Below, piece after piece: positions 7,686 to 63,830 of a stretch of 64,000 nt of DNA. The notes under the pieces are model-generated. The model was given only the letters and a program-made list of their open reading frames with translations, made no database searches and was not told where the DNA came from. This stretch comes from Escherichia phage V18: the sequence record NC_041937.1; one strand, 5' to 3'. Each line of letters begins with the position of its first letter. The stretch's first letter is position 1. A program made the translations under genes and the position numbers.

Positions 7686-8679
7686 ACCTCCTCAGTTTTG
7701 TCAACAACTCCACCCACTGTTTCCCCAAGGCCAAGCTCTGTAGTGTAATCACCGCCTTCTATGGTGCCCTTATGATGCACCGTGATCACCTTATAGAAGC
7801 CTGTATATTGCTTGCTTTTAAGATAAATAGTGGACTCTGGGAGGATAGCTCCGTTAAGGCATGTGGTTACAGTAAGACCGACATCCTCTCTCGGGTTTTT
7901 CTTTTTCTTACGTGTGCCACCTTTCGCAGCAGCTTTAGCTTTTCGTTTTTTAGCAGGCTCGGGGTTTTTAGGGTGGGAGATCCGTGCATCCCAGACTCTG
8001 CACTTATTTCAAACACAGAGTCCTTGAACCTTTTTCCAACCTTGGTCCAATACAAAGCCCCATCCTGAACGCTAAATGTGGAGTTGGTCAGTCTTGCAAA
8101 CCTGCGGAGGTTCTCTGCAGTGTTTCCAGAGAAAGCCATAGAGTATTGCAAAGTCTGGTTTCCAAAACCAACAACCCTACCTTTTGGCAAGTTCATATCC
8201 TTCAGTAGGTCATTAAGCACAGAGTTCAGAGGTGTGCCTTTCTGATAAGATCTTGTGCTTTGGCACTTAATGATGTTCTCAGTACCATCCCCGAAGATGA
8301 ACTTAGTTTTTCTGGTCGGACCTTCCCATCTGTCTTCAACAAACTCTACAGTTCCGGAGAATATCAACTGGTTCTCATCATCATAGCCAGCTTCAAACAT
8401 AACTGCAAGGGCATCAGCCTGATGCATATCCAGATAGTTAACTGTATCGTCAGACAGGTTGTAAACTGTCACATAACCTTTGTTTGGCTCTTTGGTATTG
8501 TCCTTTTGTATGTCAAACTCTATATTGGCGGCACCAGTGTCTGAGCTAACTTCATAAACTCCGGAATCACTCTCCCCTTTCTTTTCAACAGATTTTGGGA
8601 TATTGGTTTTTGATTTACCGCCATGCTCTACCGGACGACCAAACAATAATCGCCATGTTCTACGTCTGTACTCTGCCAT
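7686..8679 (-). CDS. putative baseplate/tail protein, apparent frame change near 7930-7990
   Basis: 270 aa ORF 7867-8679 ends in an implausible basic tail; another frame stays open to 7686 and encodes a Lys/Ala-rich linker plus C-terminal domain. Confidence 0.4.
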
Positions 8680-19212: not shown

Positions 19213-19296
19213 TTATTTCTCCAAAGTAAAATTGTAGCCAGCATCGCTAGAATCAACTTTGCCGAGCACGATATCAGAATATTGAGCGGTAATCAT
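19213..19296 (-). CDS. small upstream ORF (27 aa) preceding capsid gene
   Basis: MITAQYSDIVLGKVDSSDAGYNFTLEK; shares GAAATAAATGATTAC initiation region with the capsid gene; may be leader peptide or non-functional. Confidence 0.25.
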   Translation of the reverse strand: MITAQYSDIVLGKVDSSDAGYNFTLEK

Positions 19297-19380
19297 TTAT
19301 TTCCCCCGTTAAACTCTTATGCTTCAGCAGATCCAGATACTCTTTAGTTTTGGTTGCGTCCCTTGATCAGGTTCCCTTCT

Positions 19381-19728
19381 TTATCGAAGAGATCCCAGCC
19401 TACCAATACAAGACTCTGCGTCAGCTTGCGCCCATTCCCAATCAGGATGCTCTTTAGCCCAAGCCTCCTCTTCAATCTCAAAACCAAGCATGTGTGCAAG
19501 TGCTTTAGCATCATCATACCACATATCGAAGAAACGACGCAAGTATTCTTCAAAACTAAGCTCCACAGTAACTTGGCGAAGTGCCTTAACAATATCGTCT
19601 GTTAACTGCTCAGGCTTAAGATCACTCTTCATCAAAAGAGATACAGGTCTGTTGTTAGCGCTATAGCCTTGCGCCTTATGGCACAGGGCAATCCCCTTCT
19701 CTTTAATAGTAATCGTTTTTTCAGACAT
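19381..19728 (-). CDS. hypothetical head protein
   Basis: 115 aa acidic ORF between portal and capsid genes. Confidence 0.4.
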   Translation of the reverse strand: MSEKTITIKEKGIALCHKAQGYSANNRPVSLLMKSDLKPEQLTDDIVKALRQVTVELSFEEYLRRFFDMWYDDAKALAHMLGFEIEEEAWAKEHPDWEWAQADAESCIGRLGSLR

Positions 19729-21873: not shown

Positions 21874-23429
21874 TTAGATAAAACGCTTGAACATAGAAGG
21901 TGATGAGATTGATGGAATCACACAAGGAAGTGCTACCTCCTCTTTCTCCAGGAAATTAATCGCAGAAGCTACACAGTCGGCCCAGTCGTCTTTTCTGTTA
22001 AATGTTGATCTTTCCCCGTTGAATTTTTCAAGTTCAGTCAGAAATGCTTCCAGAGTATCAGGATGGAAACTGGATTTTACAATCCTCACCATTCCTTGTT
22101 GGGCAAGATTGGCAAAAGGTGAGAACCTTGTCAGTTTAGATTTGTTGGAAGGCATTGGGTCTTCTTCAACCCTAAACCCTTCGGCAAGCAAGGATCTGGA
22201 GGAGGTTAAGAACTCACTCTTACCTGCCTGACCGGGGTCCACAGAGAATACGATTATACAATCATCACCATCAAACTGCGCCTGTTTCCTGATGATCACA
22301 TCTCGTTCACCAGCCTTTTTACAGAACTTGCCTTCCAGACCTGTGGAATACCTCCCGTCATCCACGTTCTCAGGACAATAATCCCCGGACAGGTAATAAA
22401 AGCCGTCGCTATCTTTACTTACCTTGACACTGGCGGTAAAGTCAGGAAATTTATTACCGGAAGTTCTCTCGGTTCCTGCTTTATCCCATGCCCTGCAAGA
22501 CACTGATCCAAGGGGTACTCTATCGGCATCACGAAGGAAAGATCTTTGAAAATAGTTTGCACCCTCAGGCTTTGCAAACCAGTTACCATGGAGAAGCTGA
22601 GCTTTTTCAAGCTCGGGCAGACCTTCAAGGAAAGCAAGGTATTCTGGGTTGTCTCTTAAGCAGACAGGATTATCGAAGATTGTTGCGCCTATAAACGAGA
22701 ATGACAACGGTCTCGGCTTGATCTCTACACCCAGTCCGTTAACCGTGGTGTATTTCTCTATCAACTCTTCTTTAGAGTCTCCCCAGATAAATTCACCGTC
22801 GCGTCGGATAAAATATCTTTTCTTACCGCATTTCTCCGGATCTGGATACCCTTCATCGTCCAACCACCACCTAACCAGTTTGGCAAGCATGTGTTCTGAA
22901 TCGGGGTTACAGCTGATAACCATTCTTGATGGATACTTTGACTGAGATCTCAGACGAGACATCAGATAGTCTATCTGCTCCCATTCGAACTGCGTGCCTC
23001 ATCGAAGCAAACCAAGCAAACCATGGTATACTCAAGCCCTTGATGGTTAAGCTTATCTTGTACATACTCCATGTGGCAGTATTTTACAACAGCTCCCTTT
23101 TTGCTTCTATCCCACTTGCCAGTGTTCGGATCAAACCGTGGAAAAATGAACTTATGATCCTTCTCTCTGAACTTTGGCTTAATGTTTTCAGGCAGATCAC
23201 TATAAATAGCTACTGCTTTAGGCCATAGTCCACCCTCACCTTCCAACTGTGGGGTTGTTCTTCGGAACATAACCACAGAGCTGTGGGGGTCATCAATAAT
23301 TTTAAGTGGCATCAATTGCAAGAGGAACGACTTGCCAGACCCTGCGGCACCGCCGATTACCAAAATATCTGCATCGTTTTCGAGGATCATCTTCTGCTTT
23401 TCAGAACACGGTCCGTAAATCTTAGACAT
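21874..23429 (-). CDS. terminase large subunit, split into two frames (ATPase ORF 22971-23429, nuclease ORF 21874-22962)
   Basis: Walker A GGAAGSGKS and Walker B CLVCFDEA in N-terminal ORF; other frame continues ...EWEQIDYLMSRLRSQSKYPSRMVISCNPD after a single frame change. Confidence 0.75.
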
Positions 23430-23716
23430 TAACCTCTCTCCTTTGGAAACAGTGTTCTAATATAGTCTTGCAAAATGATCAATTTAGCTCTATCATTGCT
23501 ACAAGACAGATTATTATCCCTCATAATGCCAGAATTCACTGCATCTGGCGCACCTTTCTTCAAAGGCATAGCTTTAGCAGGTGGTTTCATGGCACCTTCC
23601 GGGGGTTTAACAATCAACCTTCCTACATCAGGAGGGTCAATCTTGTATTCTCTCTCAACGCTGGTTGCACACCCACATAATAACAAGCAAACAATAAACA
23701 GTGTAGCAACTCTCAT
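23429..23716 (-). CDS. o-spanin (Rz1-like outer-membrane lipoprotein)
   Basis: 95 aa; signal peptide with lipobox-like LLLCGCA; Pro-rich mature region; overlaps i-spanin stop by 4 nt. Confidence 0.6.
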   Translation of the reverse strand: MRVATLFIVCLLLCGCATSVEREYKIDPPDVGRLIVKPPEGAMKPPAKAMPLKKGAPDAVNSGIMRDNNLSCSNDRAKLIILQDYIRTLFPKERG

Positions 23717-24111
23717 TGATCCTCCTGATTGATACTCTCATTATAAATATCTATAAGCTGATCAGGAAGTGTTGACTTCTTGCCTTCAGGTGACTGGAGG
23801 TAGATAATCTGCTTTTCTTTACCTGCCTTCTCAGCCATATTTAATTTATCCTGCAGATCAGAAAGGGATTTTTCAAGGTTTTTAACCTCCTCTGCGTGGC
23901 CCATTTTAATTTTGTCGGCCTGCTTTTGTTGCTGATCAAGGATCCGTTCCCACTTTAACTCTGTTGCTGACACACCCTCTTGGTAGGCTTCATTAAGCTT
24001 AGAGTTAAACCAATATACGGCCCCAAGATAAGCTGTACCTAGCGCAGCTGCAAAAACTAAACCTTTTATGATCCCTCTATACCTACTCAGCCATGTTAAA
24101 ACTGAAATCAT
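23713..24111 (-). CDS. i-spanin (Rz-like)
   Basis: 132 aa; N-terminal transmembrane helix (LVFAAALGTAYLGAVYWF) then coiled coil; paired with lipoprotein ORF. Confidence 0.55.
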   Translation of the reverse strand: MISVLTWLSRYRGIIKGLVFAAALGTAYLGAVYWFNSKLNEAYQEGVSATELKWERILDQQQKQADKIKMGHAEEVKNLEKSLSDLQDKLNMAEKAGKEKQIIYLQSPEGKKSTLPDQLIDIYNESINQEDQ

Positions 24112-24127
24112 TTTAAGGCTCCAGAAA

Positions 24128-24164
24128 CGAAAAAACCCCGCAGCTATACAGCTAACGGGGCGGG
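24128..24164 (-). terminator. terminator-like structured element upstream of spanin genes
   Basis: CCCGC ... GCGGG stem enclosing AGCT-ATAC-AGCT palindrome, followed by T-run on minus strand. Confidence 0.35.
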
Positions 24165-24209
24165 TTAAAATTGAGTAACCTAAATAGATCGAAACTAACT
24201 AAAAGGAGA

Positions 24210-24485
24210 CTAATACTTATCGAGCACTCGGTGGATGATTCTAACAGTAACTGCATTTTCATTCATCAAGTATGCATCTACATCTCTGTAAATATAAAAC
24301 TTCTGCTCACTATCAACAACACAAGCTACTGCCCCTTCAGAGTTGTCTTCAAAAAAGACCACCACTGCATCGCAGCTGAGTTCATGATATGACTCTCGAA
24401 GATTTACAGCCAGAGGATTGAAATCGTCACGAAAATCTACAGTATGGGTTGGATTTACACGCTCTACAATTTTAAGTGTATACAT
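24210..24485 (-). CDS. hypothetical protein
   Basis: 91 aa ORF between tRNA cluster and spanin genes; terminator-like structure downstream. Confidence 0.45.
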   Translation of the reverse strand: MYTLKIVERVNPTHTVDFRDDFNPLAVNLRESYHELSCDAVVVFFEDNSEGAVACVVDSEQKFYIYRDVDAYLMNENAVTVRIIHRVLDKY

Positions 24486-24531
24486 TTTAAAGGTTCCTTT
24501 TGTTTATATATGTTTAAAGTATAACTGAAAG

Positions 24532-24608
24532 TGGTCTCCACGGAGTGATTCGAACACTCGACCTCCTGATCCCAATGGTTTATCTCTACCAAGCTGAGCT
24601 ACGCGGAG
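24532..24608 (-). tRNA. tRNA-like gene, Pro(UGG)-like, with non-pairing 5' anticodon-stem strand
   Basis: Hand-folded: acceptor CTCCGCG/CGTGGAG, T-arm GAGTG-TTCGAAT-CACTC, encoded CCA, loop ATTGGGA, but AAACC cannot pair with TCAGG. Confidence 0.45.
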
Positions 24609-24619
24609 TATTTATTATT

Positions 24620-24694
24620 TGGTGGCCCTGGGTGGAATTGAACCACCGTCTGGCGATTATGAGTCGCTTGCTTGAACCTTCCAGCTACAGGGCA
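24620..24694 (-). tRNA. tRNA-Met (anticodon CAT)
   Basis: Hand-folded cloverleaf: anticodon loop CTCATAA, T-arm GGTGG-TTCAATT-CCACC, encoded CCA; position 1:72 is a T:C mismatch. Confidence 0.6.
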
Positions 24695-24770
24695 TGGTGC
24701 TGATAGCAGGACTCGAACCTGCAACCTATTGATTACAAATCAATTGCACTACCAATTGTGCTACATCAGC
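24695..24770 (-). tRNA. tRNA-Thr (anticodon TGT)
   Basis: Acceptor GCTGATG/TATCAGC, D-arm GCAC/GTGC, anticodon stem ATTGA/TCAAT with loop TTTGTAA, T-arm GCAGG-TTCGAGT-CCTGC, CCA encoded. Confidence 0.7.
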
Positions 24771-24867
24771 AAAAAGGTGCTAGGTGATGGAATCGAACCA
24801 CCTATGTATTCAACGACCAATAGATTTACAGTCTACACCGCTACCTCTACGGGATAACTCCCCAATT
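24771..24867 (-). tRNA. tRNA-like element with Tyr(GUA)-type anticodon arm; acceptor stem not resolved
   Basis: Anticodon arm GTAGA-CTGTAAA-TCTAT and T-arm GGTGG-TTCGATT-CCATC present, long variable region, but 5' and 3' ends do not pair; may be degenerate or mis-folded by me. Confidence 0.3.
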
Positions 24868-24942
24868 TGGCACCCCGTACTGGACTCGAACCAGTGTCAA
24901 CGGCTTAGAAGGCCGCTGCTTTATCCACTAAGCTAACAGGGC
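24868..24942 (-). tRNA. tRNA-Arg (anticodon TCT)
   Basis: Acceptor GCCCTGT/ACGGGGT with G:U pairs, D-arm GCTT/AAGC, anticodon stem GCGGC/GCCGT with loop CTTCTAA, T-arm ACTGG-TTCGAGT-CCAGT, CCA encoded. Confidence 0.65.
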
Positions 24943-25000
24943 ACTGGGTGGCTTTCTTTTACACCTTAGCCGCCAGAAAAGGTGGGAGACCATGTTTACA

Positions 25001-25028
25001 ATATTACACTGTTAAGCAAAGTTTGTCA
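25001..25028 (-). promoter_or_regulatory. sigma70-like promoter upstream of tRNA cluster
   Basis: Minus strand TTGACA-N16-TAATAT about 60 nt upstream of first tRNA 5' end. Confidence 0.45.
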
Positions 25029-25038
25029 AGAAAATATT

Positions 25039-25377
25039 TTAGCTATTGCTAACAGGTTGTATTTCTGTGGTAAATGGCATAAAAGGTGCTGGTTTTTCAG
25101 CCTCTTCTACTACCACCTCTTCCTCTTCACCAAACATCTCATCATATTCTTCCTGCATTCGGTCTGCCTTATCAAGAACATACTCTGCAATGCTTTGACG
25201 AATATTTTGTTTGGTTTTCGGGTCCAACATCAGCTCTCTTAAAACTTTGTGAGCTTCTGGAACCATCGCTATAAAAGATTCCTTCATATCAAGGATGTTC
25301 TTCTCTAGCTGAATGGCGTTGGACTCCTCTTTCAGAGGTCTGCCTCTACGGCGACGCTTTTTAGTTGTATCCGCCAT
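25039..25377 (-). CDS. hypothetical basic/acidic protein
   Basis: Start placed at ATG 25377 (MADTTKKRRRRGRPLKEE...) with sigma70-like promoter upstream; longer track ORF to 25497 runs into GC-rich noncoding DNA. Confidence 0.45.
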   Translation of the reverse strand: MADTTKKRRRRGRPLKEESNAIQLEKNILDMKESFIAMVPEAHKVLRELMLDPKTKQNIRQSIAEYVLDKADRMQEEYDEMFGEEEEVVVEEAEKPAPFMPFTTEIQPVSNS

Positions 25378-25405
25378 GTTTCCTCCATTATCACGTGATA
25401 GGTGG

Positions 25406-25434
25406 ATTTTATCACAGCAAATACTGATTGTCAA
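25406..25434 (-). promoter_or_regulatory. sigma70-like promoter for ORF 25039-25377
   Basis: Minus strand TTGACA-N17-TAAAAT; palindrome ATCACGTGAT between -10 and start codon. Confidence 0.4.
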
Positions 25435-25721
25435 GTTCGCCGCAGGGGTGTATTCCCTGCGACTTGCCCAGCGTCCTGGACCAGCAAGACCCAACAAGTG
25501 GGTTACCAGAGCACATTACCGCGCTTTGGCTCGACCTTATTACAGGTTGGCTGGGGTCACATCGTCATGTGCTGGCTGCCCCTACCATTTTAAGTGTGGT
25601 GCACTATCAAGCCCTCTAAGGGGAACTCAGTCTTCTCCGAACCCTGTTTCAAAACATCCGGAGATAAAGCCATCAAATTCATCTTTAAATCGGATATTCA
25701 TCATGATACACGAAAACAACC

Positions 25722-25964
25722 TCATTGTAAAGCACAAATAAATAAAACATACTTAATTTGTTTGTTATCAGGCTCAGGGTAGAAGTAGAAGATCTTGCTA
25801 TCACCGATCTGAACACCACCATCCCAACAGCATAGCCCATAACCCGTATTCATACAAGCTAAGTCGTTGGCAAAATCTATTGCATCATCCAGTGCACGAA
25901 ATTCACCTTCATCTTCTAAATAATCCTCATTCATGGAACGAAAAACGAGCTTAACCTTAAACAT
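25722..25964 (-). CDS. hypothetical protein
   Basis: 80 aa ORF, co-oriented with neighbouring leftward genes. Confidence 0.4.
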   Translation of the reverse strand: MFKVKLVFRSMNEDYLEDEGEFRALDDAIDFANDLACMNTGYGLCCWDGGVQIGDSKIFYFYPEPDNKQIKYVLFICALQ

Positions 25965-26056
25965 AGCATTACCTGTAGACCTCGTAAGTTAAAATTGTAT
26001 CACATCATATTGCAGATCTTATCAGGTAACATTATTTTTGTCAACAGATTCCGGCC

Positions 26057-26230
26057 TTATCCCCTCCTGTCTGCATATTCTTTAATCGCAACCTCATCTG
26101 CATTGGCGACTAAATCTTCAAAGTAACTCTCAAGCTCCTCGTCAATGTCAGGAAACCAACTCTTTTTCCTGTCAGTGTGAATCGCAGACTTGTTGAACTT
26201 ATTACAGTTCTTTGCTACCGGATTGTTCAT
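26057..26230 (-). CDS. small hypothetical protein (57 aa)
   Basis: Short ORF MNNPVA...AIKEYADRRG not in the track, immediately upstream of ORF 26241-26819's start region. Confidence 0.3.
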   Translation of the reverse strand: MNNPVAKNCNKFNKSAIHTDRKKSWFPDIDEELESYFEDLVANADEVAIKEYADRRG

Positions 26231-26240
26231 TAATCACCCC

Positions 26241-26819
26241 TCAGCGTTCATAATAAATCTTATTTAACATTACCTCATCCTTTGCAGAGAGAATACCGAG
26301 ATATGCATCACCGAACCTACCTGCAACAACCTCTACATGATACATCACTTCGTTAATATCGTCAAGAGTGATAACTGGATGACCGTATCTCTCTGAGTAT
26401 TGTCTCAGAGTGCGATGTAGGGAATCATCATCGTAGGCAGACTTTTTAATATCACAAACACGACGAATAGCCTTGATGTCGAAAAACCCTGTGCGATACC
26501 AACCAAGAAAAAGGTTTCGTACAGTGTCAACACCTACATCAACACCGTCAAGAACCTTATCTACAAGATAACTGTCATCCTTTGGACCTGCTTCCTTAGT
26601 GCGAATGTAGTTGCCATCTTTTCCAGGTGACATCTCCTTCTCATCACCAACCTGAATACCATCATTTGGTGGTGTTAACCACTTATCCGGATGCTTACGA
26701 TCACGAGCGTTAGAATGATTACGCTGGAAACCTGGCTTCCACTTGAAAGTTTTCTCCATCTGTTCTTCATTCTGATAACGTTTTGCAATCTTTTCACGGT
26801 CATCTTTGCGTGGACTCAT
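26241..26819 (-). CDS. hypothetical protein
   Basis: 192 aa ORF with good coding composition; no motif recognised. Confidence 0.5.
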   Translation of the reverse strand: MSPRKDDREKIAKRYQNEEQMEKTFKWKPGFQRNHSNARDRKHPDKWLTPPNDGIQVGDEKEMSPGKDGNYIRTKEAGPKDDSYLVDKVLDGVDVGVDTVRNLFLGWYRTGFFDIKAIRRVCDIKKSAYDDDSLHRTLRQYSERYGHPVITLDDINEVMYHVEVVAGRFGDAYLGILSAKDEVMLNKIYYER

Positions 26820-27180
26820 AGCTGCCTCCTCTTCAAGTTATAGAAAAACTCACTGTATCGCTTTGTAACGAGCTTTTCTATCAAACTGGTGCGATTGCCT
26901 TACCTGGTATAGTTTATATAGCTGTGGAGCGATTTAGGGGCCTTCTTGTCCGTTTCCACACATAAACTTCATCCAAGCTCGCGCGGGAGACTCTCAACCG
27001 ACTCCTTACGGCGCTGGCAAGCTTTCGTCGGTGGTCCACATCAGTGCTCGGCCTTTGGCCTGCGCTATCGCTTCGCTCCCACACATGTTAACAGACCTGC
27101 ATGTATGCACTTCTGTTATTGTGTGCACCCGGGAGGCCCGGCATCTCGCCCCTCGTAGCGAGTGCCAATGAAGGGCCGAC

Positions 27181-27320
27181 ACTACCCGTAGTAAGTAATA
27201 AATTTAAAACATAGTACTTAGGATCTAGTATATTCTACATAAGTTAAGTATATGTACTTAGTACCATAAGTACTAGATCTTTTATTTTTTATTATTTAGT
27301 TATTTTAGTTATATTCTTTA
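27181..27320. other. AT-rich tract with short repeats (possible DNA unwinding element)
   Basis: Strongly AT-rich; repeated GTACTTAG / AGTACT words and tandem TTATTTTAG; lies between GC-rich segment and palindromic repeats. Confidence 0.4.
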
Positions 27321-27322
27321 TG

Positions 27323-27382
27323 TGTCCGTATCACGGACAGTTAGTGTCCGTATGACGGACAGTAGTGTCCGTATCACGGACA
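27323..27382. repeat. three phased palindromic repeats (iteron/operator-like array)
   Basis: TGTCCGTATCACGGACA at 27323-27339 and 27366-27382, TGTCCGTATGACGGACA at 27345-27361; 7 bp arms, 3 bp centre, 21-22 bp phasing. Confidence 0.7.
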
Positions 27383-27457
27383 GTTACTAACCTCTGTTCC
27401 ATAGCGAACATAAAACATACGAATCCTTATAGTACAGATATTTAAGTTTTTACTGGT

Positions 27458-27808
27458 CTAACCAGTTGTTGACATTCGAATAACTTCTTCTGGTGGCAAA
27501 ACTTTGGAAAATGTGCATCTTTTACCTCTCCCTTGTGTGGATATTTCAACCACTCCTGCACATTCTAAAGTTTTAACGCACGCTGCTGCTTTTGTTTTCT
27601 TTATCCCAATATCTGCTGCAATTTTCCTTGTGCTGGGCGTGAAGCGTGAATTTCCTCCAAGCTTATACCAGTTGTGCAGGTAGCAGTATACGATCTTGTC
27701 ATATAAGTCAAGAACAACAACCTCACCAGTTGTGTCATTCAAAACTTTTGACATAGACAGTATTTCAAGGGGGACTTTAAGATATAGCAGCTTATCCCCA
27801 TCTTTCAT
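27458..27808 (-). CDS. small winged-helix DNA-binding protein (putative regulator or initiator)
   Basis: 116 aa; FTPSTRKIAADIGIKKTKAAACVKTLECAGVVEIS resembles a wHTH recognition region; 3' end lies about 75 bp from three palindromic repeats. Confidence 0.5.
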   Translation of the reverse strand: MKDGDKLLYLKVPLEILSMSKVLNDTTGEVVVLDLYDKIVYCYLHNWYKLGGNSRFTPSTRKIAADIGIKKTKAAACVKTLECAGVVEISTQGRGKRCTFSKVLPPEEVIRMSTTG

Positions 27809-27855
27809 ATCTCCTGATTCTCCTTGTGTGGCAATTTTCTTTAAAATAGCAGGGA

Positions 27856-28410
27856 TTACTCCCCGCTGTCAATAGCAAGACTCATTGCAATACGGTATGC
27901 CTCTTCTAATGGTAAGAGTCTCCCCCACACATCCCAACCGACATCAAACTGCCTGCCAAACAACTGCTGTGTGGTTCCGTGAGCATGACCGAACAGTTGG
28001 ACCGATCCGTGAGGCTTTCTGTTCCACTTTGCAAACTGGTAATGGCTCATACAGATCAAATTCTTGTTGTGGCGAAGCTCGTAATAATCTACAACCTCAT
28101 GACCGAACTCTTTCATAATTCTGACAGTCGTCCTTGTGTCATGGTTACCACGAACAAGAATAATATGTCCGTTCAACATATTTAGAACATCTGGGAGCAA
28201 TTTGTTAATATTCTTATCATTAGTGCACGCAATATCTCCTAAGTGAAACACAGTGTCTGCAGGTGACACAACAGAGTTCCACTTGGTGATGATCCCCGCA
28301 TTCATACTGTCAAGATTGTGATCATACTGAGATCTGTGTTTTTGACATGAGTCAAACTCCATGACCCGCTGGTGGAGAAAGTGTGTGTCGCTTGTTACAA
28401 AGTATTTCAT
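27856..28410 (-). CDS. calcineurin-like metallophosphoesterase (putative polynucleotide 3'/2',3'-phosphatase)
   Basis: Start at ATG 28410 (MKYFVTSDTHFLHQ) with GAGGA RBS; motifs DTHF, HLGDIA, RGNHD, GHAH. Confidence 0.65.
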   Translation of the reverse strand: MKYFVTSDTHFLHQRVMEFDSCQKHRSQYDHNLDSMNAGIITKWNSVVSPADTVFHLGDIACTNDKNINKLLPDVLNMLNGHIILVRGNHDTRTTVRIMKEFGHEVVDYYELRHNKNLICMSHYQFAKWNRKPHGSVQLFGHAHGTTQQLFGRQFDVGWDVWGRLLPLEEAYRIAMSLAIDSGE

Positions 28411-28417
28411 ACATTCC

Positions 28418-28828
28418 TCATTTAAGTTTAATGCAGTTTTTAAGCTGGCGTTCCATACGATCCACAACCCTGTCTGGAACATCATGAATGCTTTTACTAC
28501 CATGGCGGTTTTCAACCACGATTACGGTATAACTATACCCATGACTGATCGCCATGTCAATATATTCTTGCACATATTTTTCTTTTGTAAATGTATTACT
28601 TACCACGATACGGTCGTATCCCATACGCATCATATCTTCTACGTTATCTTTGCACCATTTTGCTGCAAGTGTTACTTTACTTGCATCCCAGTTGTAATTT
28701 CCATCATCGTCGTACCAGAACATGTCGTTCTCAAAATGTGGATACAGACCTTCTAAAGATAGCGCACTTGCCAGTGTTGATTTGCCAGACCCTGGTAGAC
28801 CACGCACGATATATAGCATTTTAGACAT
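28418..28828 (-). CDS. P-loop polynucleotide kinase-like protein
   Basis: Start at ATG 28828 (MSKMLYIVRGLPGSGKSTLA) with GGAGG RBS; resembles T4 Pnk kinase domain; stop overlaps phosphatase RBS. Confidence 0.6.
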   Translation of the reverse strand: MSKMLYIVRGLPGSGKSTLASALSLEGLYPHFENDMFWYDDDGNYNWDASKVTLAAKWCKDNVEDMMRMGYDRIVVSNTFTKEKYVQEYIDMAISHGYSYTVIVVENRHGSKSIHDVPDRVVDRMERQLKNCIKLK

Positions 28829-28856
28829 AGTAATCCTCCGTTTTAATTTCAACGAT

Positions 28857-28885
28857 AGTATACCTAACTGTTTTGTTAATTTCAA
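28857..28885 (-). promoter_or_regulatory. sigma70-like promoter for kinase/phosphatase operon
   Basis: Minus strand TTGAAA-N17-TATACT in divergent intergenic region. Confidence 0.4.
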
Positions 28886-28928
28886 GTGTTGACACTAGGT
28901 TATTTGTGTGGCAGGATAGACTGACAAA

Positions 28929-29606
28929 ATGACAAATGAGGAACGTATGATGAAGTATTTTAATGCAGACGACCTAGTTGACAAAGGTCTTGTAACCAGC
29001 AGATATTACACAGATCTTGGGTTAAAGATCTATAAATATGCCAGAAAAGTATTTTACAACAATTTATGGCATTTGTCCCCTCGTTTACTGGAGTGCCGAG
29101 GCATTGTTGTCGGTAATGAAGGAAATGTTGTGGCATGGCCCTTCACAAAAGTGTTTAACTTGGGAGAAAACTCCACCAACCTGTCTGACAATAAGCTTGT
29201 GACGGCGGTAGAGAAAAAGAACGGATTCCTTGGTGTGGTATCATCTCATAAAGGTGAACTATTGTTCTCAACAACCGGATCTCTTGATTCTCCATATTGT
29301 AACCTCGCAAAGGAAACCATCCAGGAGCAATGTGGTAATTTAGATCTTATCAAGAAGGTTATGGGCAATGAAAACATGACATTCATGTTTGAAATTTGTC
29401 ACCCTTCAGATCCGCATATTGTTCAGGAAGATCATGGCGCATATTTGATAGGTTGCAGGTATAATGATTCTGGAATAATGCTACCAGAGGCAGCTTTAGA
29501 TGGGATTGCCAAATACCTTGGTGCAAAACGTCCTCACACTGTGCGTGAAATTCCGTTCAGCTATGCAAAAGAATTGGCTGCAGAAACAAGAGGTGAAGGT
29601 ATATGA
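28929..29606 (+). CDS. putative RNA/DNA ligase-like nucleotidyltransferase
   Basis: 225 aa; candidate motif I lysine in VEKKNGFLGV (KxNG); divergent from kinase/phosphatase operon; assignment tentative. Confidence 0.45.
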   Translation: MTNEERMMKYFNADDLVDKGLVTSRYYTDLGLKIYKYARKVFYNNLWHLSPRLLECRGIVVGNEGNVVAWPFTKVFNLGENSTNLSDNKLVTAVEKKNGFLGVVSSHKGELLFSTTGSLDSPYCNLAKETIQEQCGNLDLIKKVMGNENMTFMFEICHPSDPHIVQEDHGAYLIGCRYNDSGIMLPEAALDGIAKYLGAKRPHTVREIPFSYAKELAAETRGEGI

Positions 29607-29863
29607 TTCGTAAGCCTTACTATCCTTATGATCTGCAGCTGAAGATTAAGTCTCCATACTATCTGGCACGGAAGGCCGTAATGAGGGGTAAAGCTTGGAA
29701 GATTTGGGATGATGATATCTTTAAACGTGTTGACGAAGAGTTTTACGGCATGGTAAACTTCATTCGTAGCAATTACACAGAAGATGTGTGGAACTGCCTC
29801 CTGGAGCAGGAACGCCGTGAGATACTTGACTGCTATTTCCACAACGAGGACTATATGCAATGA
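29603..29863 (+). CDS. hypothetical protein
   Basis: 86 aa ORF translationally coupled to ligase-like gene. Confidence 0.4.
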   Translation: MIRKPYYPYDLQLKIKSPYYLARKAVMRGKAWKIWDDDIFKRVDEEFYGMVNFIRSNYTEDVWNCLLEQERREILDCYFHNEDYMQ

Positions 29864-30042
29864 AGAAGTGGAAAGTTCTTTTTAATCACTCCAGAGAAAC
29901 GTCAAATTATGGGCTCCCAGACGCTATTTGGCTAAAGAATTCCTCCGAGTTTATGGATTTTATTAACGATAATAGAAAGCTCTACAGACGCGTTTCTGAG
30001 TGGCATATGGACAACGACCTTGGAGAGGTGTTCGAAGGGTAA
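29860..30042 (+). CDS. hypothetical small protein
   Basis: 60 aa ORF, start overlaps upstream stop. Confidence 0.25.
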   Translation: MKKWKVLFNHSRETSNYGLPDAIWLKNSSEFMDFINDNRKLYRRVSEWHMDNDLGEVFEG

Positions 30043-30211
30043 GACTGTTTTATTGCGCTTGGAAGAGCTATTTGTATTTGGTAAGCCTCCTGTAGTTGAC
30101 AACGTGAAGATTTTCGTGCATACTTCTAACCCATCAGCGGCTCGTAAATTCATGCTTGCGGCTGACTCGTTTAAAAAGTTTGGAATAGAGATTAAACAAA
30201 ACATCTACTGA
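30020..30211 (+). CDS. hypothetical small protein
   Basis: 63 aa ORF overlapping previous in another frame; may be a frame variant of the same gene. Confidence 0.25.
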   Translation: MERCSKGKTVLLRLEELFVFGKPPVVDNVKIFVHTSNPSAARKFMLAADSFKKFGIEIKQNIY

Positions 30212-30219
30212 GGACACTT

Positions 30220-30921
30220 ATGCGACGACTGATTGTTATCTCCGGTGCTGGTTTGAGTGCTGAATCTGGTATTCCCACTTTCCGATCTGGTAGCACTGCA
30301 ATGTGGGAGAATTTCAGCATCGATGAGGTGTGCAACATCCACACCTTTGCCAAGAACTACTATAAGGTGCATGACTTTTACAATGCACGTCGTGTAGCTT
30401 TAGGCAGTGTTGAGCCTAACCTTGCACATCTTCGGATCGCTGAGTGGTATTCCCGCTGGTCTGGTCGTGTGATCAACCTTACCACCAATGTAGATGATTT
30501 GCTGGAGCGTGCTGGTGTAAAACATGAAGATATTTTACATGTCCACGGGTATTTGCCAGAAATAGTCTATGAGGACGATGAAGGAAGTGACGTCATTAAG
30601 GACATTGGATACTCTGAGGTAGACGCAGGAAAGTATACCTGGGTTAAGCCTAATGTGGTGTTCTTCGGAGAAGTAGCTCCGAAGTATACAGACATGTATG
30701 ACCTGTTGACTTCTCTTACGAGCAATGATATGGTTATCCTTGTAGGGTGCTCCAACACAGTTATCAATTTTAACTGGGAGCATCTAGAGGAGAATGGCAT
30801 TTCACGTAGTGATATTTACCAGTATGAGGATCGCGGCATCCCAGTTTGGTTTAACGGTGCGGTTGATGCCTTCTCTGATAAAACATTCATTGAGACTGTA
30901 GAAAACTTTATGGAACTTTAA
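30220..30921 (+). CDS. Sir2-family (sirtuin-like) NAD-dependent protein
   Basis: GAGLSAESGIPTFRS Rossmann motif, NVDDL and HVHG motifs; no CxxC zinc-binding module; GAGGA RBS. Confidence 0.7.
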   Translation: MRRLIVISGAGLSAESGIPTFRSGSTAMWENFSIDEVCNIHTFAKNYYKVHDFYNARRVALGSVEPNLAHLRIAEWYSRWSGRVINLTTNVDDLLERAGVKHEDILHVHGYLPEIVYEDDEGSDVIKDIGYSEVDAGKYTWVKPNVVFFGEVAPKYTDMYDLLTSLTSNDMVILVGCSNTVINFNWEHLEENGISRSDIYQYEDRGIPVWFNGAVDAFSDKTFIETVENFMEL

Positions 30922-30934
30922 AAGGAGAACTTTA

Positions 30935-31648
30935 ATGCTGAATACTAAATTAATTGACAACCTGGAAAAACTATCCCAACCTGAAAACTACCTTTGGTCT
31001 GCCAACTGGGTGGAAAACTGGAACCGTGTGGCAGCTAAAGTGAAAAAATCATACACACCATTCGAATTACAGCTTAGCTTCATTGAGGAAGAGTTCAATG
31101 AAGTTTTGGAAGAGCTGGAGAAAGGTGATGGTGGAGATCACCTGCTAAAAGAGGCCTGCGATCTTCACGTTGTCACAAGTTATGCCGCTTATCTTGTTAA
31201 TGACAATCACGAAAAGTGGTCAAGCCTGTTTGATAATCCACAGGGTCTTAAGTTCAAGATCGGTGAGTTCTATGATACCCTGATCGCTGCGAAAAACACA
31301 CCTAAGCAAAGAGCGTCAGCTTACCGCTTAGCGGAGTTGTCAACAGCTTTGCTGTTCCAGCTTCGCGGCGATGTGTGCGGGATGATGCGTAAGGTTCTCA
31401 AATCGAATGACAGTAAGTTTGCACGGGTCAACCATCTACGGTATTCACACGGTGCCAGTGCAGATATGCCTGCTGAACAACTCATCGAGTTGGAGATTAA
31501 AGATCTTGAGCGACGCTTTGATGGTAGATATGAAGGTTTTGTTGCTAAGGAAGAGTTCTACAACGGTAATAAAGTTATCATATTCCTTGACAGTAAAGGT
31601 AAGATCATGAAGCCTTCGAGCTTCAAGGATGTAACAGAGTATATTTAA
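30935..31648 (+). CDS. putative MazG-like nucleotide pyrophosphohydrolase domain protein
   Basis: FIEEEFNEVLEELEKGD ... HLLKEACDL resembles the EExxE/D metal-binding helices of MazG-type NTP-PPases; tentative. Confidence 0.4.
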   Translation: MLNTKLIDNLEKLSQPENYLWSANWVENWNRVAAKVKKSYTPFELQLSFIEEEFNEVLEELEKGDGGDHLLKEACDLHVVTSYAAYLVNDNHEKWSSLFDNPQGLKFKIGEFYDTLIAAKNTPKQRASAYRLAELSTALLFQLRGDVCGMMRKVLKSNDSKFARVNHLRYSHGASADMPAEQLIELEIKDLERRFDGRYEGFVAKEEFYNGNKVIIFLDSKGKIMKPSSFKDVTEYI

Positions 31649-31654
31649 CAACAT

Positions 31655-31680
31655 AGCCGGGATTACCCGGCTTTACTTGT
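31655..31680 (+). terminator. terminator candidate
   Basis: AGCCGGG-ATTA-CCCGGCT hairpin then T-rich tail. Confidence 0.4.
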
Positions 31681-31681
31681 T

Positions 31682-32020
31682 GTGGAAAGTATGCAAGTGA
31701 GGAAGATAGTTATGTACAAGCACTCTAGAGATCTTGAAAACGATGCTGTGTTTGGGGATCAGATGAAAGAGTTGGTTAAACTCATAGGCAGGATAGAGGA
31801 TAAGTTTGACACTAAGATCTACATCGACAGCAAAGTATTCAACCACAAAATATGGACAAATCTGTGTGTTGGACTACATGGAGATAAAGATGTGGTAAAT
31901 TTAGTTGTAATTAAGTTCATAGTGTGGCAGAATAAAACTATAAATTATTACGATCCACACCTTCTTGTTTACCCGATAAAAGACCTATTAGATAAGGAGG
32001 ACTGCAGTGCCGTTATTTAA
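31682..32020 (+). CDS. hypothetical protein
   Basis: 112 aa ORF after terminator-like hairpin. Confidence 0.4.
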   Translation: MESMQVRKIVMYKHSRDLENDAVFGDQMKELVKLIGRIEDKFDTKIYIDSKVFNHKIWTNLCVGLHGDKDVVNLVVIKFIVWQNKTINYYDPHLLVYPIKDLLDKEDCSAVI

Positions 32021-32276
32021 TCTTGCTAAACCTGTAGAAGCACACCAGTTTGACGGAAGCTCTTCATCAGTATCTGATCTGCAACGGTGGATTGATACAG
32101 GTGTGTTTACATCGTCACCTGTTCGTACCAGAGATCTTCGTCGCATGTGTGAGCTTGTCGAGCCGTTTGGTAACCTGGTCTTGTACCAGGGAGATTGGTT
32201 AGTTGACTTTATGGGAGACTGGTTGGTAATGAGTAAAGAAGAGATGTTTAACATTTTTAAGGAAGAGGCCGAGTAA
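32007..32276 (+). CDS. hypothetical protein
   Basis: 89 aa ORF coupled to ligase gene (stop overlaps ATG). Confidence 0.4.
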   Translation: MPLFNLAKPVEAHQFDGSSSSVSDLQRWIDTGVFTSSPVRTRDLRRMCELVEPFGNLVLYQGDWLVDFMGDWLVMSKEEMFNIFKEEAE

Positions 32277-33598
32277 TGCATCAGATCAAAACAACACTGT
32301 ACGCACTGAACAAAGATGGCAGCTACCAACAGTGGAAAGTATTCACGGATGGTGATAAGGTTATCGTAGAGTTTGGCAAGCTTGATGGTAAATTGCAATA
32401 CAAAGAGACGATCTGCACACCTAAGAACGTTGGTCGCGCCAATGAAACTACAGCTGAGCAACAGGCCGAGCTGGAAGCGATCAGTAAGTGGGAAAAACAG
32501 GTCCGACTCGGGTACGTGGAGAGTATGGAAGATTGTGAGCAAGGTGTTGATCTTTTACCAATGTTAGTGCATGACTACCTGAAGCGTGGCAAGGCACTTA
32601 AATTACCTTGCTGGATCTTGCGTAAGTTAGATGGCCTTCGTCTACTTGTTGTTTTCCAGAATGGTGAGCCTAAATTTATTTCCCGTGGTAATAAATCCTA
32701 CCCTATTCAAGGAAAGCTTTTGGAGCAACTTCGCTCTTTCCACCTAACCACCGGGATTAAACAGCTCGACGGAGAGCTCTATATTCATGGTCTGCCTCTG
32801 CAGAAAATAGTGTCTCTTGCTAAACGGTGGCGCACACAGGAAGAAATTCAGGCCGAGATCGATAAAGACTACGAGGCAGATAAAAAACGCCGTCAGGCTG
32901 CGATTAAGGCAGGTTTAGCAACATACAAAAACTTCAACAAGATGGATATTCCTGTTGATGTTGATCCTGTTCGTGATGATTTGCGTTACGGAGGGTACTG
33001 CAGCTACGACCTAGAGTATCATATTTTCGATATCCCTAGCGATAAGGTGTGGTGGGATCCTGAAACAGAGTCTGGTCGCTGTAAGGATCTTATGGAGGCA
33101 AACGGTGCTATTACTTCTTTGATGCTTGATCATATTAAGGTTGTTGATGCAGAGCTTGCATATACGGTTGATCGGTGCGAAGAGTCTGTTGGTATATTTA
33201 TGTCTGAAGGATATGAAGGTACCATTATGCGTAACTTCTGTGGTAAATATGAGTATGGTCAGCGAACATCTGAAGCATTGAAATGGAAAAAGTTCAACGA
33301 CGCAGAGGTGAAAGTTATTGACGTTGAGAAAGATAAGAATGATGAAGGTGTTCTTATCTGTGTTGACAAGGAAGGTGTTGTTGTTAAAATGAAGATGAAA
33401 GGCACGCACGAGGAGCGTAGCTATGACAGGATGCAGGAAATGATCGGCAAGTTTGTCACCTTCAAATATCAAGCAAGGACAGAAGACAACAACTACCAAT
33501 TCCCGGAGTGGTGGGATGCTGTATGCGTCAGAAAATCCGCAGAATATGCAAAACATGATGATTCGTTGGAAGAGTGGTTTAATCGGAGGTTTAAATGA
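32276..33598 (+). CDS. ATP-dependent DNA ligase
   Basis: 440 aa; motif I KLDGLR, motif IV EGYEGTIMR, motif V KWKKF. Confidence 0.75.
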   Translation: MHQIKTTLYALNKDGSYQQWKVFTDGDKVIVEFGKLDGKLQYKETICTPKNVGRANETTAEQQAELEAISKWEKQVRLGYVESMEDCEQGVDLLPMLVHDYLKRGKALKLPCWILRKLDGLRLLVVFQNGEPKFISRGNKSYPIQGKLLEQLRSFHLTTGIKQLDGELYIHGLPLQKIVSLAKRWRTQEEIQAEIDKDYEADKKRRQAAIKAGLATYKNFNKMDIPVDVDPVRDDLRYGGYCSYDLEYHIFDIPSDKVWWDPETESGRCKDLMEANGAITSLMLDHIKVVDAELAYTVDRCEESVGIFMSEGYEGTIMRNFCGKYEYGQRTSEALKWKKFNDAEVKVIDVEKDKNDEGVLICVDKEGVVVKMKMKGTHEERSYDRMQEMIGKFVTFKYQARTEDNNYQFPEWWDAVCVRKSAEYAKHDDSLEEWFNRRFK

Positions 33599-34074
33599 AG
33601 CTAGATAAAAATGTACAATTGAGAGCATTTTTTTCGATGATTTCACACTCAGAAGGTACTGACAGGTATGGTGGCGAAGATGCTTCGTACCACATCCTTG
33701 TTGGTGGAAAATACATAGAGGATCTCAGCAGGCATCCCGGTATTTATGTCAAATTAAGACCGGGCCTTACCTCTTCAGCATTTGGCAGATACCAAATTCT
33801 GGAGAAATACGCTAAGCATTACATGAAGCAGCTTGGCTTAAGAGATTTTGGTCCGGCAAGTCAAGATGCCATAGCAAAACAGTTGATCCGCGAATGTAAA
33901 GCCCTTGATGACATTTATGAAGGAAGGATCCGTTCAGCTATCTATAAATGCCGTAGCCGTTGGGCAAGTTTCCCACCACCACCGGGGGCTGGTAAACTGT
34001 ATGATCAGCGTGTAGAAAACATAGAGAAGATGCTGGACGTCTTCCGAAAAGCCGGAGGCACAGTACTGGATTAA
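33595..34074 (+). CDS. endolysin (lambda R-like lytic transglycosylase)
   Basis: Aligns by eye with lambda R: SHSEGTD, ILVGG, SSAFGRYQIL, KQLGLRDFGPASQDAIA, WASFPPPPGAG, KAGGTV. Confidence 0.75.
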   Translation: MKLDKNVQLRAFFSMISHSEGTDRYGGEDASYHILVGGKYIEDLSRHPGIYVKLRPGLTSSAFGRYQILEKYAKHYMKQLGLRDFGPASQDAIAKQLIRECKALDDIYEGRIRSAIYKCRSRWASFPPPPGAGKLYDQRVENIEKMLDVFRKAGGTVLD

Positions 34075-34077
34075 TGG

Positions 34078-34106
34078 TTGACATAACCACACGGACGTGG
34101 TATTGT
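34078..34106 (+). promoter_or_regulatory. sigma70-like promoter
   Basis: TTGACA-N17-TATTGT upstream of ORF 34138. Confidence 0.45.
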
Positions 34107-34137
34107 CACCTCATAAGATGTTCAGGAGGGTTTAACC

Positions 34138-34344
34138 ATGAAAGATTTTCTGTTGGCAATTTTGTTCATGGCGGCATGTCTGGCCTGTGGTGTAGTGTTT
34201 GCAGGTGAAACAGCGTATCTTGTCGATGTATATCGGGACAATGGTAAACGTATTTGCCTTTATGAGACAAGCCAAGGTGAGCTCTACGAGCTTGTGAAAC
34301 AAGGCGAGGCAGGTTCCTGCCCTCGCACCCATTTCTTTGAATAA
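34138..34344 (+). CDS. small secreted/membrane protein (signal peptide or lipoprotein-like)
   Basis: 68 aa; N-terminal hydrophobic segment LLAILFMAACLACGVV; preceded by sigma70-like promoter; could be lysis-associated. Confidence 0.4.
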   Translation: MKDFLLAILFMAACLACGVVFAGETAYLVDVYRDNGKRICLYETSQGELYELVKQGEAGSCPRTHFFE

Positions 34345-34353
34345 GGGGGATAC

Positions 34354-34817
34354 GTGGAAGACGGACGTTTAATGAAGTCTGAACGCAGGCTTATTGTGCA
34401 ACTGATCCCAGAAACAGCTTGGTATAATAACCTCCGAAACGCTGTGAAGGAGAGTGAGTGGGATAAGATCCGCAAGAAGTGCTATAGAGAAGCCAACTAC
34501 ACTTGTGAGGTGTGTGGCGGTAAAGGCAGCAAACACCCAGTGGAGTGTCATGAACTTTACACTTTCGAAGAGGGAGTGATCCGGCTTGTCGGACTGATAG
34601 CGTTGTGCCAGATTGTCACACATCGGTGCATCCTGGGTTAGCAAATATTCGTGGAAAGTATGCTCAGGCAGTTAATCAGTTGGCTAAGGTGAATAAGATC
34701 ACCAAAGGTATGGCAGAGGCGTATTACCGAGACTGCTTTGCAGAGTGGCGTGAGCTTAGTAAAGTTCCAGAGTGGAAGACTGACTTTTCGTGGATAGAGG
34801 GTTACCTTGATGGCTAA
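34354..34817 (+). CDS. HNH-like zinc-finger nuclease, apparent frame change near 34605-34641
   Basis: CEVCGG ... HPVECHE in first ORF; second overlapping ORF begins ...PDCHTSVHPGL (second Cys/His pair); together resemble an HNH nuclease. Confidence 0.4.
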
Positions 34818-35100
34818 GAGATCTGTAAAAGAGAAATTCGATAAGACAGCTTTTGTATTCGATACACCTCTGGACGATATCATCAGAGGTATGCAAGCCT
34901 TGTATCGGAAGGCTGAATCTGAGCAGTTGTCTGAATCAGAACTTTACTGGCTTGGTTGGTGGGAGTTAAACCTGCCTAAAGCTGAAAGTTCTTGTCTGAG
35001 AACTGTTAAAACGTGCGCCCAAGAAAACGCTGCACTTGGAATCTACCACAAAAGGAAAAGATCAACAAAAAGCTCTCCAAGAAAGACTAAAAAGTCTTGA
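34807..35100 (+). CDS. hypothetical protein
   Basis: 97 aa ORF with basic C-terminus. Confidence 0.4.
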   Translation: MMAKRSVKEKFDKTAFVFDTPLDDIIRGMQALYRKAESEQLSESELYWLGWWELNLPKAESSCLRTVKTCAQENAALGIYHKRKRSTKSSPRKTKKS

Positions 35101-55142: not shown

Positions 55143-55238
55143 CAGGTATGCTTCTGATTAACTGGGAAGACCTCTATGGGCCTTTATGGGAAAAGAGCAT
55201 GTATTTAAAATGGTGCGTTAATTTAGGGAGGCCTTCCA

Positions 55239-56936: not shown

Positions 56937-56938
56937 CT

Positions 56939-63812: not shown

Positions 63813-63830
63813 CCACACAGTTTGGAGAAT

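Follow-up and report, generated by a model that had tools for sequence, protein, structure and literature searches.

Lysis genes of Escherichia phage V18

In the 64,000 nucleotides of Escherichia phage V18 analyzed here (NC_041937.1; this whole stretch is called the window below), the lysis genes lie at two separate loci. Genes for a predicted two-component spanin adjoin the gene for the large terminase (TerL), and the gene for an endolysin of the lambda R type is found 9.5 kb away, within a rightward block of genes for replication and nucleotide metabolism. We consider it highly probable that this is the normal dispersed lysis layout of the genus Vequintavirus, like that of T4 and T7 and unlike the lambda cassette, and regard this as the best explanation overall. 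The holin itself most probably is a small membrane protein whose gene lies beyond the window, and an 88-amino-acid (aa) membrane protein of the rV5 gp29 type (family phrog_1322) is tentatively put forward for this role. The two loci contain the following features (ORF, open reading frame):

21874-22962 and 22971-23429, minus strand: TerL gene, here two ORFs in two frames
23429-23716, minus strand: putative o-spanin, outer-membrane lipoprotein subunit, 95 aa
23713-24111, minus strand: putative i-spanin, inner-membrane subunit, 132 aa
33363-33390, plus strand: sigma-70-like promoter match upstream of the endolysin gene (TTGACA-16-TAAAAT, 11/12, with TG; consensus match only)
33595-34074, plus strand: endolysin, lambda R-type lytic transglycosylase, 159 aa, predicted to be cytoplasmic (PDB 1am7/3d3d, phrog_90)
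34078-34106, plus strand: sigma-70-like promoter match just upstream of the 68-aa gene (TTGACA-17-TATTGT, 10/12, extended -10 TG; consensus match only)
34138-34344, plus strand: predicted small Sec-secreted periplasmic protein, 68-aa precursor with a mature part of ~45 aa and two invariant Cys (phrog_4641)

The first-pass annotation of this DNA had reported spanins upstream of the terminase gene, an endolysin about 10 kb off and a small ORF at 34138-34344, and all of them are present at these positions. Its description of the lysis genes as dispersed holds as well, the spanin genes standing beside TerL at the head of the leftward block of late genes for packaging and structure, and the endolysin gene in the rightward block. 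Genes run leftward up to ~28.9 kb and rightward beyond, and the GC skew changes its sign at the same place; the transcription switch that puts the endolysin in the rightward block is thus supported both by gene orientation and by the skew.

Judged by nucleotide identity, the window is a piece of the ~137-kb genome of a Vequintavirus (rV5-like myophage). It shares 95-98% identity with many Vequintavirus genomes (~135-140 kb), and 110 phage genomes, all of them of rV5-like E. coli myophages, cover at least 80% of the query 23000-35000 with an identity of up to 98% (megablast). As the window comprises less than half of such a genome, the holin may lie outside it.

The spanin pair and the endolysin

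The o-spanin and the i-spanin match the PHROGs for Rz-like spanins phrog_1267 (E=1.3e-22) and phrog_4297 (E=7.5e-50), respectively. The N-terminus of the former (MRVATLFIVCLLLCGC) has a signal with a lipobox-like LCGC (...LLLCGC), followed by a Pro-rich sequence; a hydropathy scan of the latter revealed an N-terminal transmembrane domain (TMD; residues ~13-35) and a charged helical region behind it. The genes are co-oriented and overlap by 4 nt (23713-23716), and the stop codon of the o-spanin gene abuts the TerL start at 23429. By the TMD, the lipobox-like signal and the adjacency of the genes, the pair is predicted to be a two-component spanin, and the same two genes are annotated as I-spanin and O-spanin in the relatives. 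The spanins of rV5 have been placed in the 'separated' class (PMC6139136), and those of rV5 and PVP-SE1 adjoin TerL outside any cassette (CB7 paper, PMC7344957). Scans for promoters and terminators near the spanin genes gave counts at chance level.

The endolysin had been described as lambda R-like, and the comparison with lambda lysozyme (PDB 1am7, 3d3d) bears this out: 154 residues (5-158) align with E=6e-31 (phmmer), and the SEGTD motif is kept, HSEGTD of the window pairing with WSEGTD of lambda. The glutamate of this motif is presumably the catalytic one (E19 in lambda). The protein also matches phrog_90 ('endolysin', E=1.3e-40), and the identical protein is encoded on many Vequintavirus contigs. 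Pfam gave no match at E≤0.1, which we take as a filter or model-sensitivity issue. Hydropathy scans detected neither a hydrophobic N-terminus nor a signal or signal-arrest-release (SAR) segment, and the N-terminus aligns with that of lambda R. An endolysin without an export signal needs a hole-forming holin to reach the wall; by analogy with lambda, the enzyme would be cytoplasmic and dependent on a membrane hole.

The earlier statement that no holin is evident beside the lysis genes was confirmed. A canonical holin adjacent to the endolysin gene was looked for with hydropathy scans and profile models, and none was found; at both loci, the hydropathy scan (coding strands, ORFs from 28 aa upwards) detected no membrane span in the ORFs adjoining the endolysin or spanin genes, the 68-aa ORF excepted, and no small protein with at least two hydrophobic spans was detected by it anywhere in the 64-kb window. 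None of the membrane candidates matched a holin family of Pfam, PHROGs or NCBIfam, matches to XhlA and DUF2644 being below threshold.

A candidate holin in the late tail-fibre operon

Phage HMD-6 is a well-annotated relative, in whose whole-genome annotation 0 of 222 features are designated as holin. A scan of this genome for membrane proteins, together with the annotation, revealed two small membrane proteins encoded inside the late tail-fibre operon: the rV5 gp31 type (104 aa, phrog_5345), which has a coiled coil and a single TMD, and the rV5 gp29 type (88 aa, phrog_1322, E=2.7e-32). Neither gene is present in the window; they would be located ~14-16 kb to the left of it. The gp31 type and the gp29 type are conserved across all genera of Vequintavirinae, and the gp29 type also beyond them (222 and 373 records). 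The gp29-type gene, at 103645-103911 in HMD-6 (PQ505080), has a good ribosome-binding site, and its position in the late tail-fibre operon suggests late expression. In Aeromonas phage 2L372D, the two genes are neighbours again. In PVP-SE1, a cluster of three genes for membrane proteins (gp42-gp44) is present inside the tail-fibre operon, where the phrog_5345 and phrog_1322 proteins flank a 157-aa protein annotated with four TMDs (phrog_7451).

The proteins of the phrog_1322 family have 77-90 aa and consist of a basic N-terminus (D..R.SHTKxW), two predicted Gly/Ala/Ser/Thr-rich helices separated by an acidic loop, and a short polar tail. In the gp29 type, the charge distribution, alongside two weakly hydrophobic segments, fits a two-helix topology with both termini inside.

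Homologues are present in Mu-like phages and prophages. Matches to phrog_1322 with E=1e-19 to 9e-23 were obtained for proteins from Pseudomonas phage Bise, Ralstonia phage RS138 and Mu-like prophages, and a profile-profile comparison (hhalign) of the Vequintavirinae and Mu-like phrog_1322 sets gave 98.4% probability (E=8.3e-15, 69 columns). In Bise, RS138 and many prophages of Pseudomonadota, the gene order is Mor, soluble endolysin, phrog_1322 gene, spanin(-like) gene and Mu gp27-type TerS, with 4-nt start/stop overlaps; the endolysin of Bise and of the prophages is a Peptidase_M15_4/VanY protein, that of RS138 a member of another endolysin PHROG. On another contig, the phrog_1322 gene is located two genes downstream of a Peptidase_M15_3 gene. 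This linkage to endolysin and spanin genes was seen in the Mu-like relatives and not in Vequintavirinae themselves. Within the Mu-like branch, one entry in UniRef bears the name 'Holin', which no sampled Vequintavirus record does; the relation of phrog_1322 to DUF2644 is only faint.

We therefore tentatively propose, on these sequence features, that the 88-aa gp29-type protein could be the Vequintavirus holin. The holin missing from the whole of Vequintavirinae would then belong, quite possibly, to an uncurated family, phrog_1322, whose genes in Mu-like phages stand between those for endolysin and spanin. If so, the gene would have moved to the tail-fibre operon or elsewhere in Vequintavirinae, Phapecoctavirus, Aeromonas Plateaulakevirus and Menderavirus, and would have stayed close to the gene for the gp31-type protein (one TMD and coiled coil) in at least two lineages of large myophages.

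Several observations weigh against this assignment. The table in the rV5 paper (TMHMM, Phobius) lists no TMD for gp29 (PMC3606486), which may also explain why the protein has been overlooked. The hydrophobic stretches of phrog_1322 are weak (Kyte-Doolittle ~1.0-1.3), and the AlphaFold2 model of the gp29 type, with helices 22-43 and 49-73, is of low confidence (predicted local distance difference test, pLDDT, 58). No holin model of Pfam, NCBIfam or PHROG matches the family, and for a holin its identity of ~50% between genera is high. The neighbours of the gene in large myophages are tail-fibre or tailspike genes and, in Menderavirus, the DNA polymerase gene; in such settings, a role of phrog_1322 in virion assembly or another role in the membrane is possible. 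Furthermore, the Mu-like cassettes encode another small membrane protein (92 aa, one TMD and coiled coil, phrog_462), which could be their hole-former instead. This 92-aa protein and the rV5 gp31 type are not detectably homologous (BLASTP E=0.1; hhalign probability 2.4%).

Other candidates for the holin function

The only published candidate is rV5 gp129, which was proposed as the holin by the describers of rV5 (PMC3606486). The gp129-type proteins (78 aa) possess two strongly hydrophobic TMDs and a Lys/Arg-rich C-terminus, and the organism names of the 116 phage records containing their genes match those of the ~118 rV5-like genomes. In the window, tblastn with gp129-type proteins did not find a homologue. 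At 55170-55172, the window is ~810 bp shorter than all 30 relatives listed among the best matches; mapped against phage inoa, the deletion amounts to 814 bp and joins 11 codons from the start of one gene to 26 codons from the end of another:

55139-55261, plus strand: fusion ORF across the 814-bp deletion, which removes the two-TMD gp129-type gene (junction ~55170-55172)

The junction was not found in viral, metagenome and genome collections (exact-pattern scans) or in complete E. coli genomes (megablast), and an exact look-up of the fusion protein gave no match. We considered whether the loss proves gp129 to be dispensable, and rejected this, as the window has frameshifts or deletions in the genes for the tape measure, the major capsid protein and TerL, among others; in a sequence damaged throughout, the absence of gp129 cannot show that the protein is dispensable, and with so many other defects it may be an artefact.

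That the gp129-type protein, expected at ~55.17 kb and absent here through a deletion or an assembly gap, is the holin appears rather unlikely to us. Its tblastn matches (E≤1e-3) are confined to records named Escherichia, Shigella, 'Campylobacter', 'Phage' and Vequintavirinae sp., with no hosts of sister genera among them, whereas the spanins occur across genera. The gene sits among small accessory genes of the rightward block. The loop between the helices (SRRRVKFDD) is basic, so the positive-inside rule suggests an N-out/C-out topology, unlike that of class II holins. No holin-family model matches the protein, which is 'hypothetical' in every Vequintavirus record sampled and in the announcement of LL12 by a group specializing in phage lysis; furthermore, two papers call the holin of rV5-like phages unidentified (PMC6658697, PMC7471380). 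The standing proposal for gp129 is weakened by these observations. The first-pass annotation had looked for the holin at 55-64 kb, and this stands insofar as the published candidate would sit at ~55.17 kb; the gene has, however, been deleted from the window sequence.

An improbable alternative is that these phages have no canonical holin at all and start lysis in the way of phage Mu, which lyses without a holin (PMC9239132), by means of a secreted or SAR-type hydrolase and a releasin-like membrane protein. The hydrolase would be a SleB-like enzyme encoded upstream of rIIA/rIIB, and the helper would be the gp31 type with its N-out TMD and cytoplasmic coiled coil. Indeed, relatives encode a SleB-like protein (Pfam Hydrolase_2, E=2.7e-19) with an N-terminal signal-like hydrophobic segment, which may be a second, exported murein hydrolase, and gp31-type proteins have the same topology as gp25, the releasin of Mu. 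In HMD-6 (PQ505080), the SleB-like gene occupies 122924-123424, directly upstream of rIIA/rIIB and in a region outside the window. However, the lambda R-type endolysin without an export signal would still need a hole, the gp31 type has no DUF2730 match and, as mentioned above, no detectable homology to the Mu-like proteins with TMD and coiled coil, and both the SleB-like and the gp31-type genes are outside the window.

The first-pass annotation had favoured the small membrane peptides scattered over 55-64 kb, which turned out to be single-span peptides of 31-46 aa or N-terminally anchored proteins and, where a family could be assigned, to belong to PHROG families without an assigned function:

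55239-55358, plus strand: 39-aa single-span peptide, weak holin candidate (hydropathy 2.3; phrog_15251, no assigned function)
55527-55991, plus strand: 154-aa protein, membrane span at the C-terminus by hydropathy (annotated as 'virion structural protein', phrog_7821, E=4.8e-71)
56054-56401, plus strand: 115-aa protein, anchor or signal at the N-terminus, acidic C-terminal domain with two Cys (hydropathy scan)
56933-57028, plus strand: 31-aa hydrophobic peptide ORF (hydropathy 2.6-2.7)
59002-59103, plus strand: 33-aa single-span peptide by hydropathy (phrog_15151, no assigned function)
61826-62140, plus strand: N-terminally anchored protein of 87 aa in HMD-6, here a frameshifted copy whose gene is split (ORFs 61878-62075 and 61826-62140)
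62169-62309, plus strand: 46-aa single-span peptide by hydropathy (phrog_16755, no assigned function)
63822-63932, plus strand: 36-aa single-span peptide ORF by hydropathy (phrog_34195, no assigned function)

These hydrophobic peptides are conserved among rV5-like genomes, and several of their genes are preceded by ribosome-binding sites. Nevertheless, we rate them as poor candidates, and it is very improbable that one of the single-span peptides or N-terminally anchored proteins (39, 31, 33, 46, 36, 87 or 115 aa) is the holin. Each of the peptides matches one PHROG only, always one without an assigned function (in the frameshifted copy, phrog_13956 matches only residues 1-33); none is encoded near a lysis gene, their surroundings consisting of many small genes of the rightward block, and some ORFs in the window are frameshift products. 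To our knowledge, single-span peptides of 31-46 aa are also smaller than the characterized holins.

The 68-aa ORF directly downstream of the endolysin gene is very unlikely to encode a lysis partner, be it a holin with one TMD, an antiholin like RI or a lipoprotein for lysis, in spite of its position, its strong ribosome-binding site (AGGAGG) and the long N-terminus of the window copy (19 hydrophobic, Ala/Gly/Cys-rich residues, a possible anchor), as indicated by the comparison of its homologues below.

The 68-aa protein encoded downstream of the endolysin

The protein matches phrog_4641 (no assigned function) with E=4.4e-28 and is 95-100% identical across rV5-like genomes (100% in many). It was aligned first with 11 and then with 32 homologues (33 sequences). 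The hydrophobic N-terminus is variable in the family and short in most members, where it has the form of a classic signal peptide and closes with a site of the AxA type (AFA|T, AHA|S, AWS|G, VFA|G). The first-pass annotation had called the ORF signal-peptide or lipoprotein-like. The signal peptide is borne out by these sites; the lipoprotein is not, as the cysteines in the signal region of the window copy are not conserved in either alignment, most homologues having no Cys there and hence no lipobox. With no invariant lipobox Cys at +1, a lipoprotein was ruled out. The conserved part is a domain of 41-45 residues with invariant T25, L28, Y32, C40, Y42, S45, G47 and C61. The AlphaFold2 model (pLDDT 82) has an N-terminal signal helix followed by a four-stranded sheet; Foldseek of this model against PDB gave only generic small beta-barrels (E≥0.03) and no significant match.

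The gene is not bound to lysis genes. Its slot between an exonuclease gene and the ligase region is unchanged in Seunavirus 4MG, Mydovirus KPP-1 and Serratia phage Kashira, where no endolysin gene adjoins it, and homologues are also present in genomic islands of Yersinia enterocolitica beside an integrase gene, one source using the name 'Secreted protein'. The Yersinia copies are located at the edge of the integrated element, near restriction-modification and resolvase genes, and this setting suggests a mobile gene for a periplasmic effector. Where a holin would have a conserved and retained TMD, the family thus has a variable, mostly short hydrophobic region with an AxA end; in the place of a charged cytoplasmic C-terminal tail stands a two-Cys beta domain of ~45 aa; and instead of a conserved linkage to lysis genes, the gene occurs in the settings listed above. 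Alignment and synteny together rule out a holin. From the alignments and the structural model, we conclude that the protein is probably a Sec-exported periplasmic mini-protein of the disulfide type, neither holin nor lipoprotein, for which a regulatory role in the periplasm is possible.

Comparison with known lysis systems

The lysis genes of the window are arranged as in the published Vequintavirus sets (rV5, LL12, Gotham, FV3), with spanin genes by TerL, an R-type lysozyme gene after DNA ligase and no accepted holin. The window differs from these sets in having neither a gp129-type gene nor an HNH gene upstream of the endolysin, and in its many frameshifts. In fact, dispersed genes and a missing holin are ordinary for this phage group and already known from the literature (PMC6658697, PMC7471380, PMC3606486): a holin was not identified in LL12 (PMC6658697), in Gotham (PMC7471380) or in KPP-1 of a sister genus (PMC9862379). 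We found nothing relevant in the literature on characterized holins of Vequintavirinae or Phapecoctavirus, on DUF2644 or on RS138.

Similar dispersal occurs in well-studied phages, and the likeness to T7 is especially close. Phage T7 has its endolysin gene in the early region (gp3.5 amidase, class II region), the holin gp17.5 after the tail-fibre gene 17, and the spanins 18.5/18.7 beside the terminase genes 18/19. In the rV5-like phages, likewise, the endolysin gene is in a DNA-metabolism block, the spanin genes are beside a terminase gene, and the candidate holin is encoded among tail-fibre genes; unlike T7, they have a transglycosylase rather than an amidase, are myoviruses of ~137 kb, and their candidate holin is putative and unrelated in sequence. 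T4 has rIIA/rIIB and, at scattered positions, e, t, rI, rIII and pseT.3/pseT.2. Scattered lysis genes and, in the relatives, homologues of rIIA/rIIB are common to both systems; however, no homologue of the holin T or of the antiholins RI and RIII is annotated in the whole genome of one relative (HMD-6). The same parallel to T4 was drawn in the rV5 paper (PMC3606486).

With lambda, the system shares a true R homologue (E=6e-31) and a two-component spanin. Unlike in the S-R-Rz/Rz1 cassette, the genes are unclustered, an S-like holin with three TMDs is missing, and the spanin genes are separated/overlapping rather than embedded. With the Mu-like phages (Bise, RS138 and prophages), it shares the phrog_1322 homologue of the Vequintavirus 88-aa protein, the gene for which is located in the Vequintavirus tail-fibre operon far from endolysin and spanin genes, and not between them.

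The S68 protein of phage 21 is a class II holin. As in such holins, the two predicted helices of the phrog_1322 proteins follow a basic N-terminus, with an acidic loop between them and a C-terminus that is short and polar. Unlike S68, they are less hydrophobic and have neither a sequence relationship to it nor a match to a holin model, and their partner endolysins are soluble, so that large holes rather than pinholes would be needed.

Taken together, lysis could proceed as follows. The endolysin would accumulate in the cytoplasm until, at the end of infection, the holin opens the inner membrane and releases it; the spanins would then fuse the inner and outer membranes. The holin in this scheme could be the gp29-type protein expressed from the late tail-fibre operon, next to the gp31-type protein with its one TMD and coiled coil.

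Sequence quality and other features of the window

Many genes in the window are disrupted. In comparison with slur16 and HMD-6, single-base deletions, several of them beside short homopolymer runs, split the genes for tape measure and baseplate hub, among others:

~7910-7971: split baseplate hub, single-base deletion versus close relatives
~11560: split tape measure, single-base deletion versus close relatives
15502, 16259 and 17907: further gene-splitting single-base deletions versus close relatives

More than 20 genes across the window, including those for RNA ligase, Dam methylase, PhoH and NrdD, are split or differ in length from their HMD-6 counterparts. The major capsid gene has an internal deletion of 185 bp, and ~350 bp and ~640 bp of the head-decoration genes are absent versus slur16, these sites being at 18764 and 19231-19395 of the window; as written, the deletions in the capsid and head-decoration genes are incompatible with a viable virion. 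In TerL, at 22960-23000, 9 nt are duplicated in tandem (GGTTTGCTT) and 1 nt is deleted, an 8-nt net scar that puts the two halves into different frames. The scar is exactly at the site where relatives carry an intron (330-950 bp), which is absent here, and could reflect imprecise intron loss or a sequence error. Next to the endolysin gene, 823 bp present in most relatives are deleted (33497-33600), with about the last 18 codons of DNA ligase and the greater part of a gene for an HNH homing endonuclease. This has produced a ligase-HNH fusion ORF of 440 aa (32276-33598) which overlaps the endolysin start. The comparison with relatives thus indicates that the window sequence is of draft quality or damaged, and it appears not trustworthy as a functional genome.

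Only three tRNA genes (Met, Thr, Arg) are present in the cluster at 24620-24942, in comparison with 5-7 in relatives (also Pro, Ser and Tyr), ~370 bp being missing. Between the spanin and endolysin genes, at 27856-30921, there is a gene cluster resembling RNA repair or anti-defence, with members named after annotations and Pfam marks: a phosphoesterase (Metallophos), a kinase (AAA_33, annotated as polynucleotide kinase), an RNA ligase of the T4 Rnl1 type and a cyclic-phosphate receiver protein (cREC_REC), both frameshifted in the window, and a Sir2 protein. Among the database records, ~18-21 of 'Campylobacter phage' (MG0656xx) are 97-100% identical to E. coli rV5-like phages in the genes examined and are probably mislabelled or contaminant Vequintavirus assemblies.

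Significance

In comparison with what was known of the group, the present analysis adds the exclusion of the neighbouring 68-aa ORF as a holin, a caution on the quality of this sequence and a candidate holin encoded outside the window. The 68-aa ORF represents a separate family of secreted mini-proteins in phages and genomic islands, and its product would be a candidate periplasmic effector rather than a lysis protein. The rV5-like phages are widely used in biocontrol cocktails against E. coli O157 and avian pathogenic E. coli (APEC), and the timing and control of their lysis are therefore of practical interest. For the holin gap, the analysis offers one testable candidate, the gene for the 88-aa protein, plus its gp31-type neighbour. 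If the proposed function is true, phrog_1322 would be a new holin family occurring both in temperate phages of the Mu type and in several groups of virulent myophages of large size.

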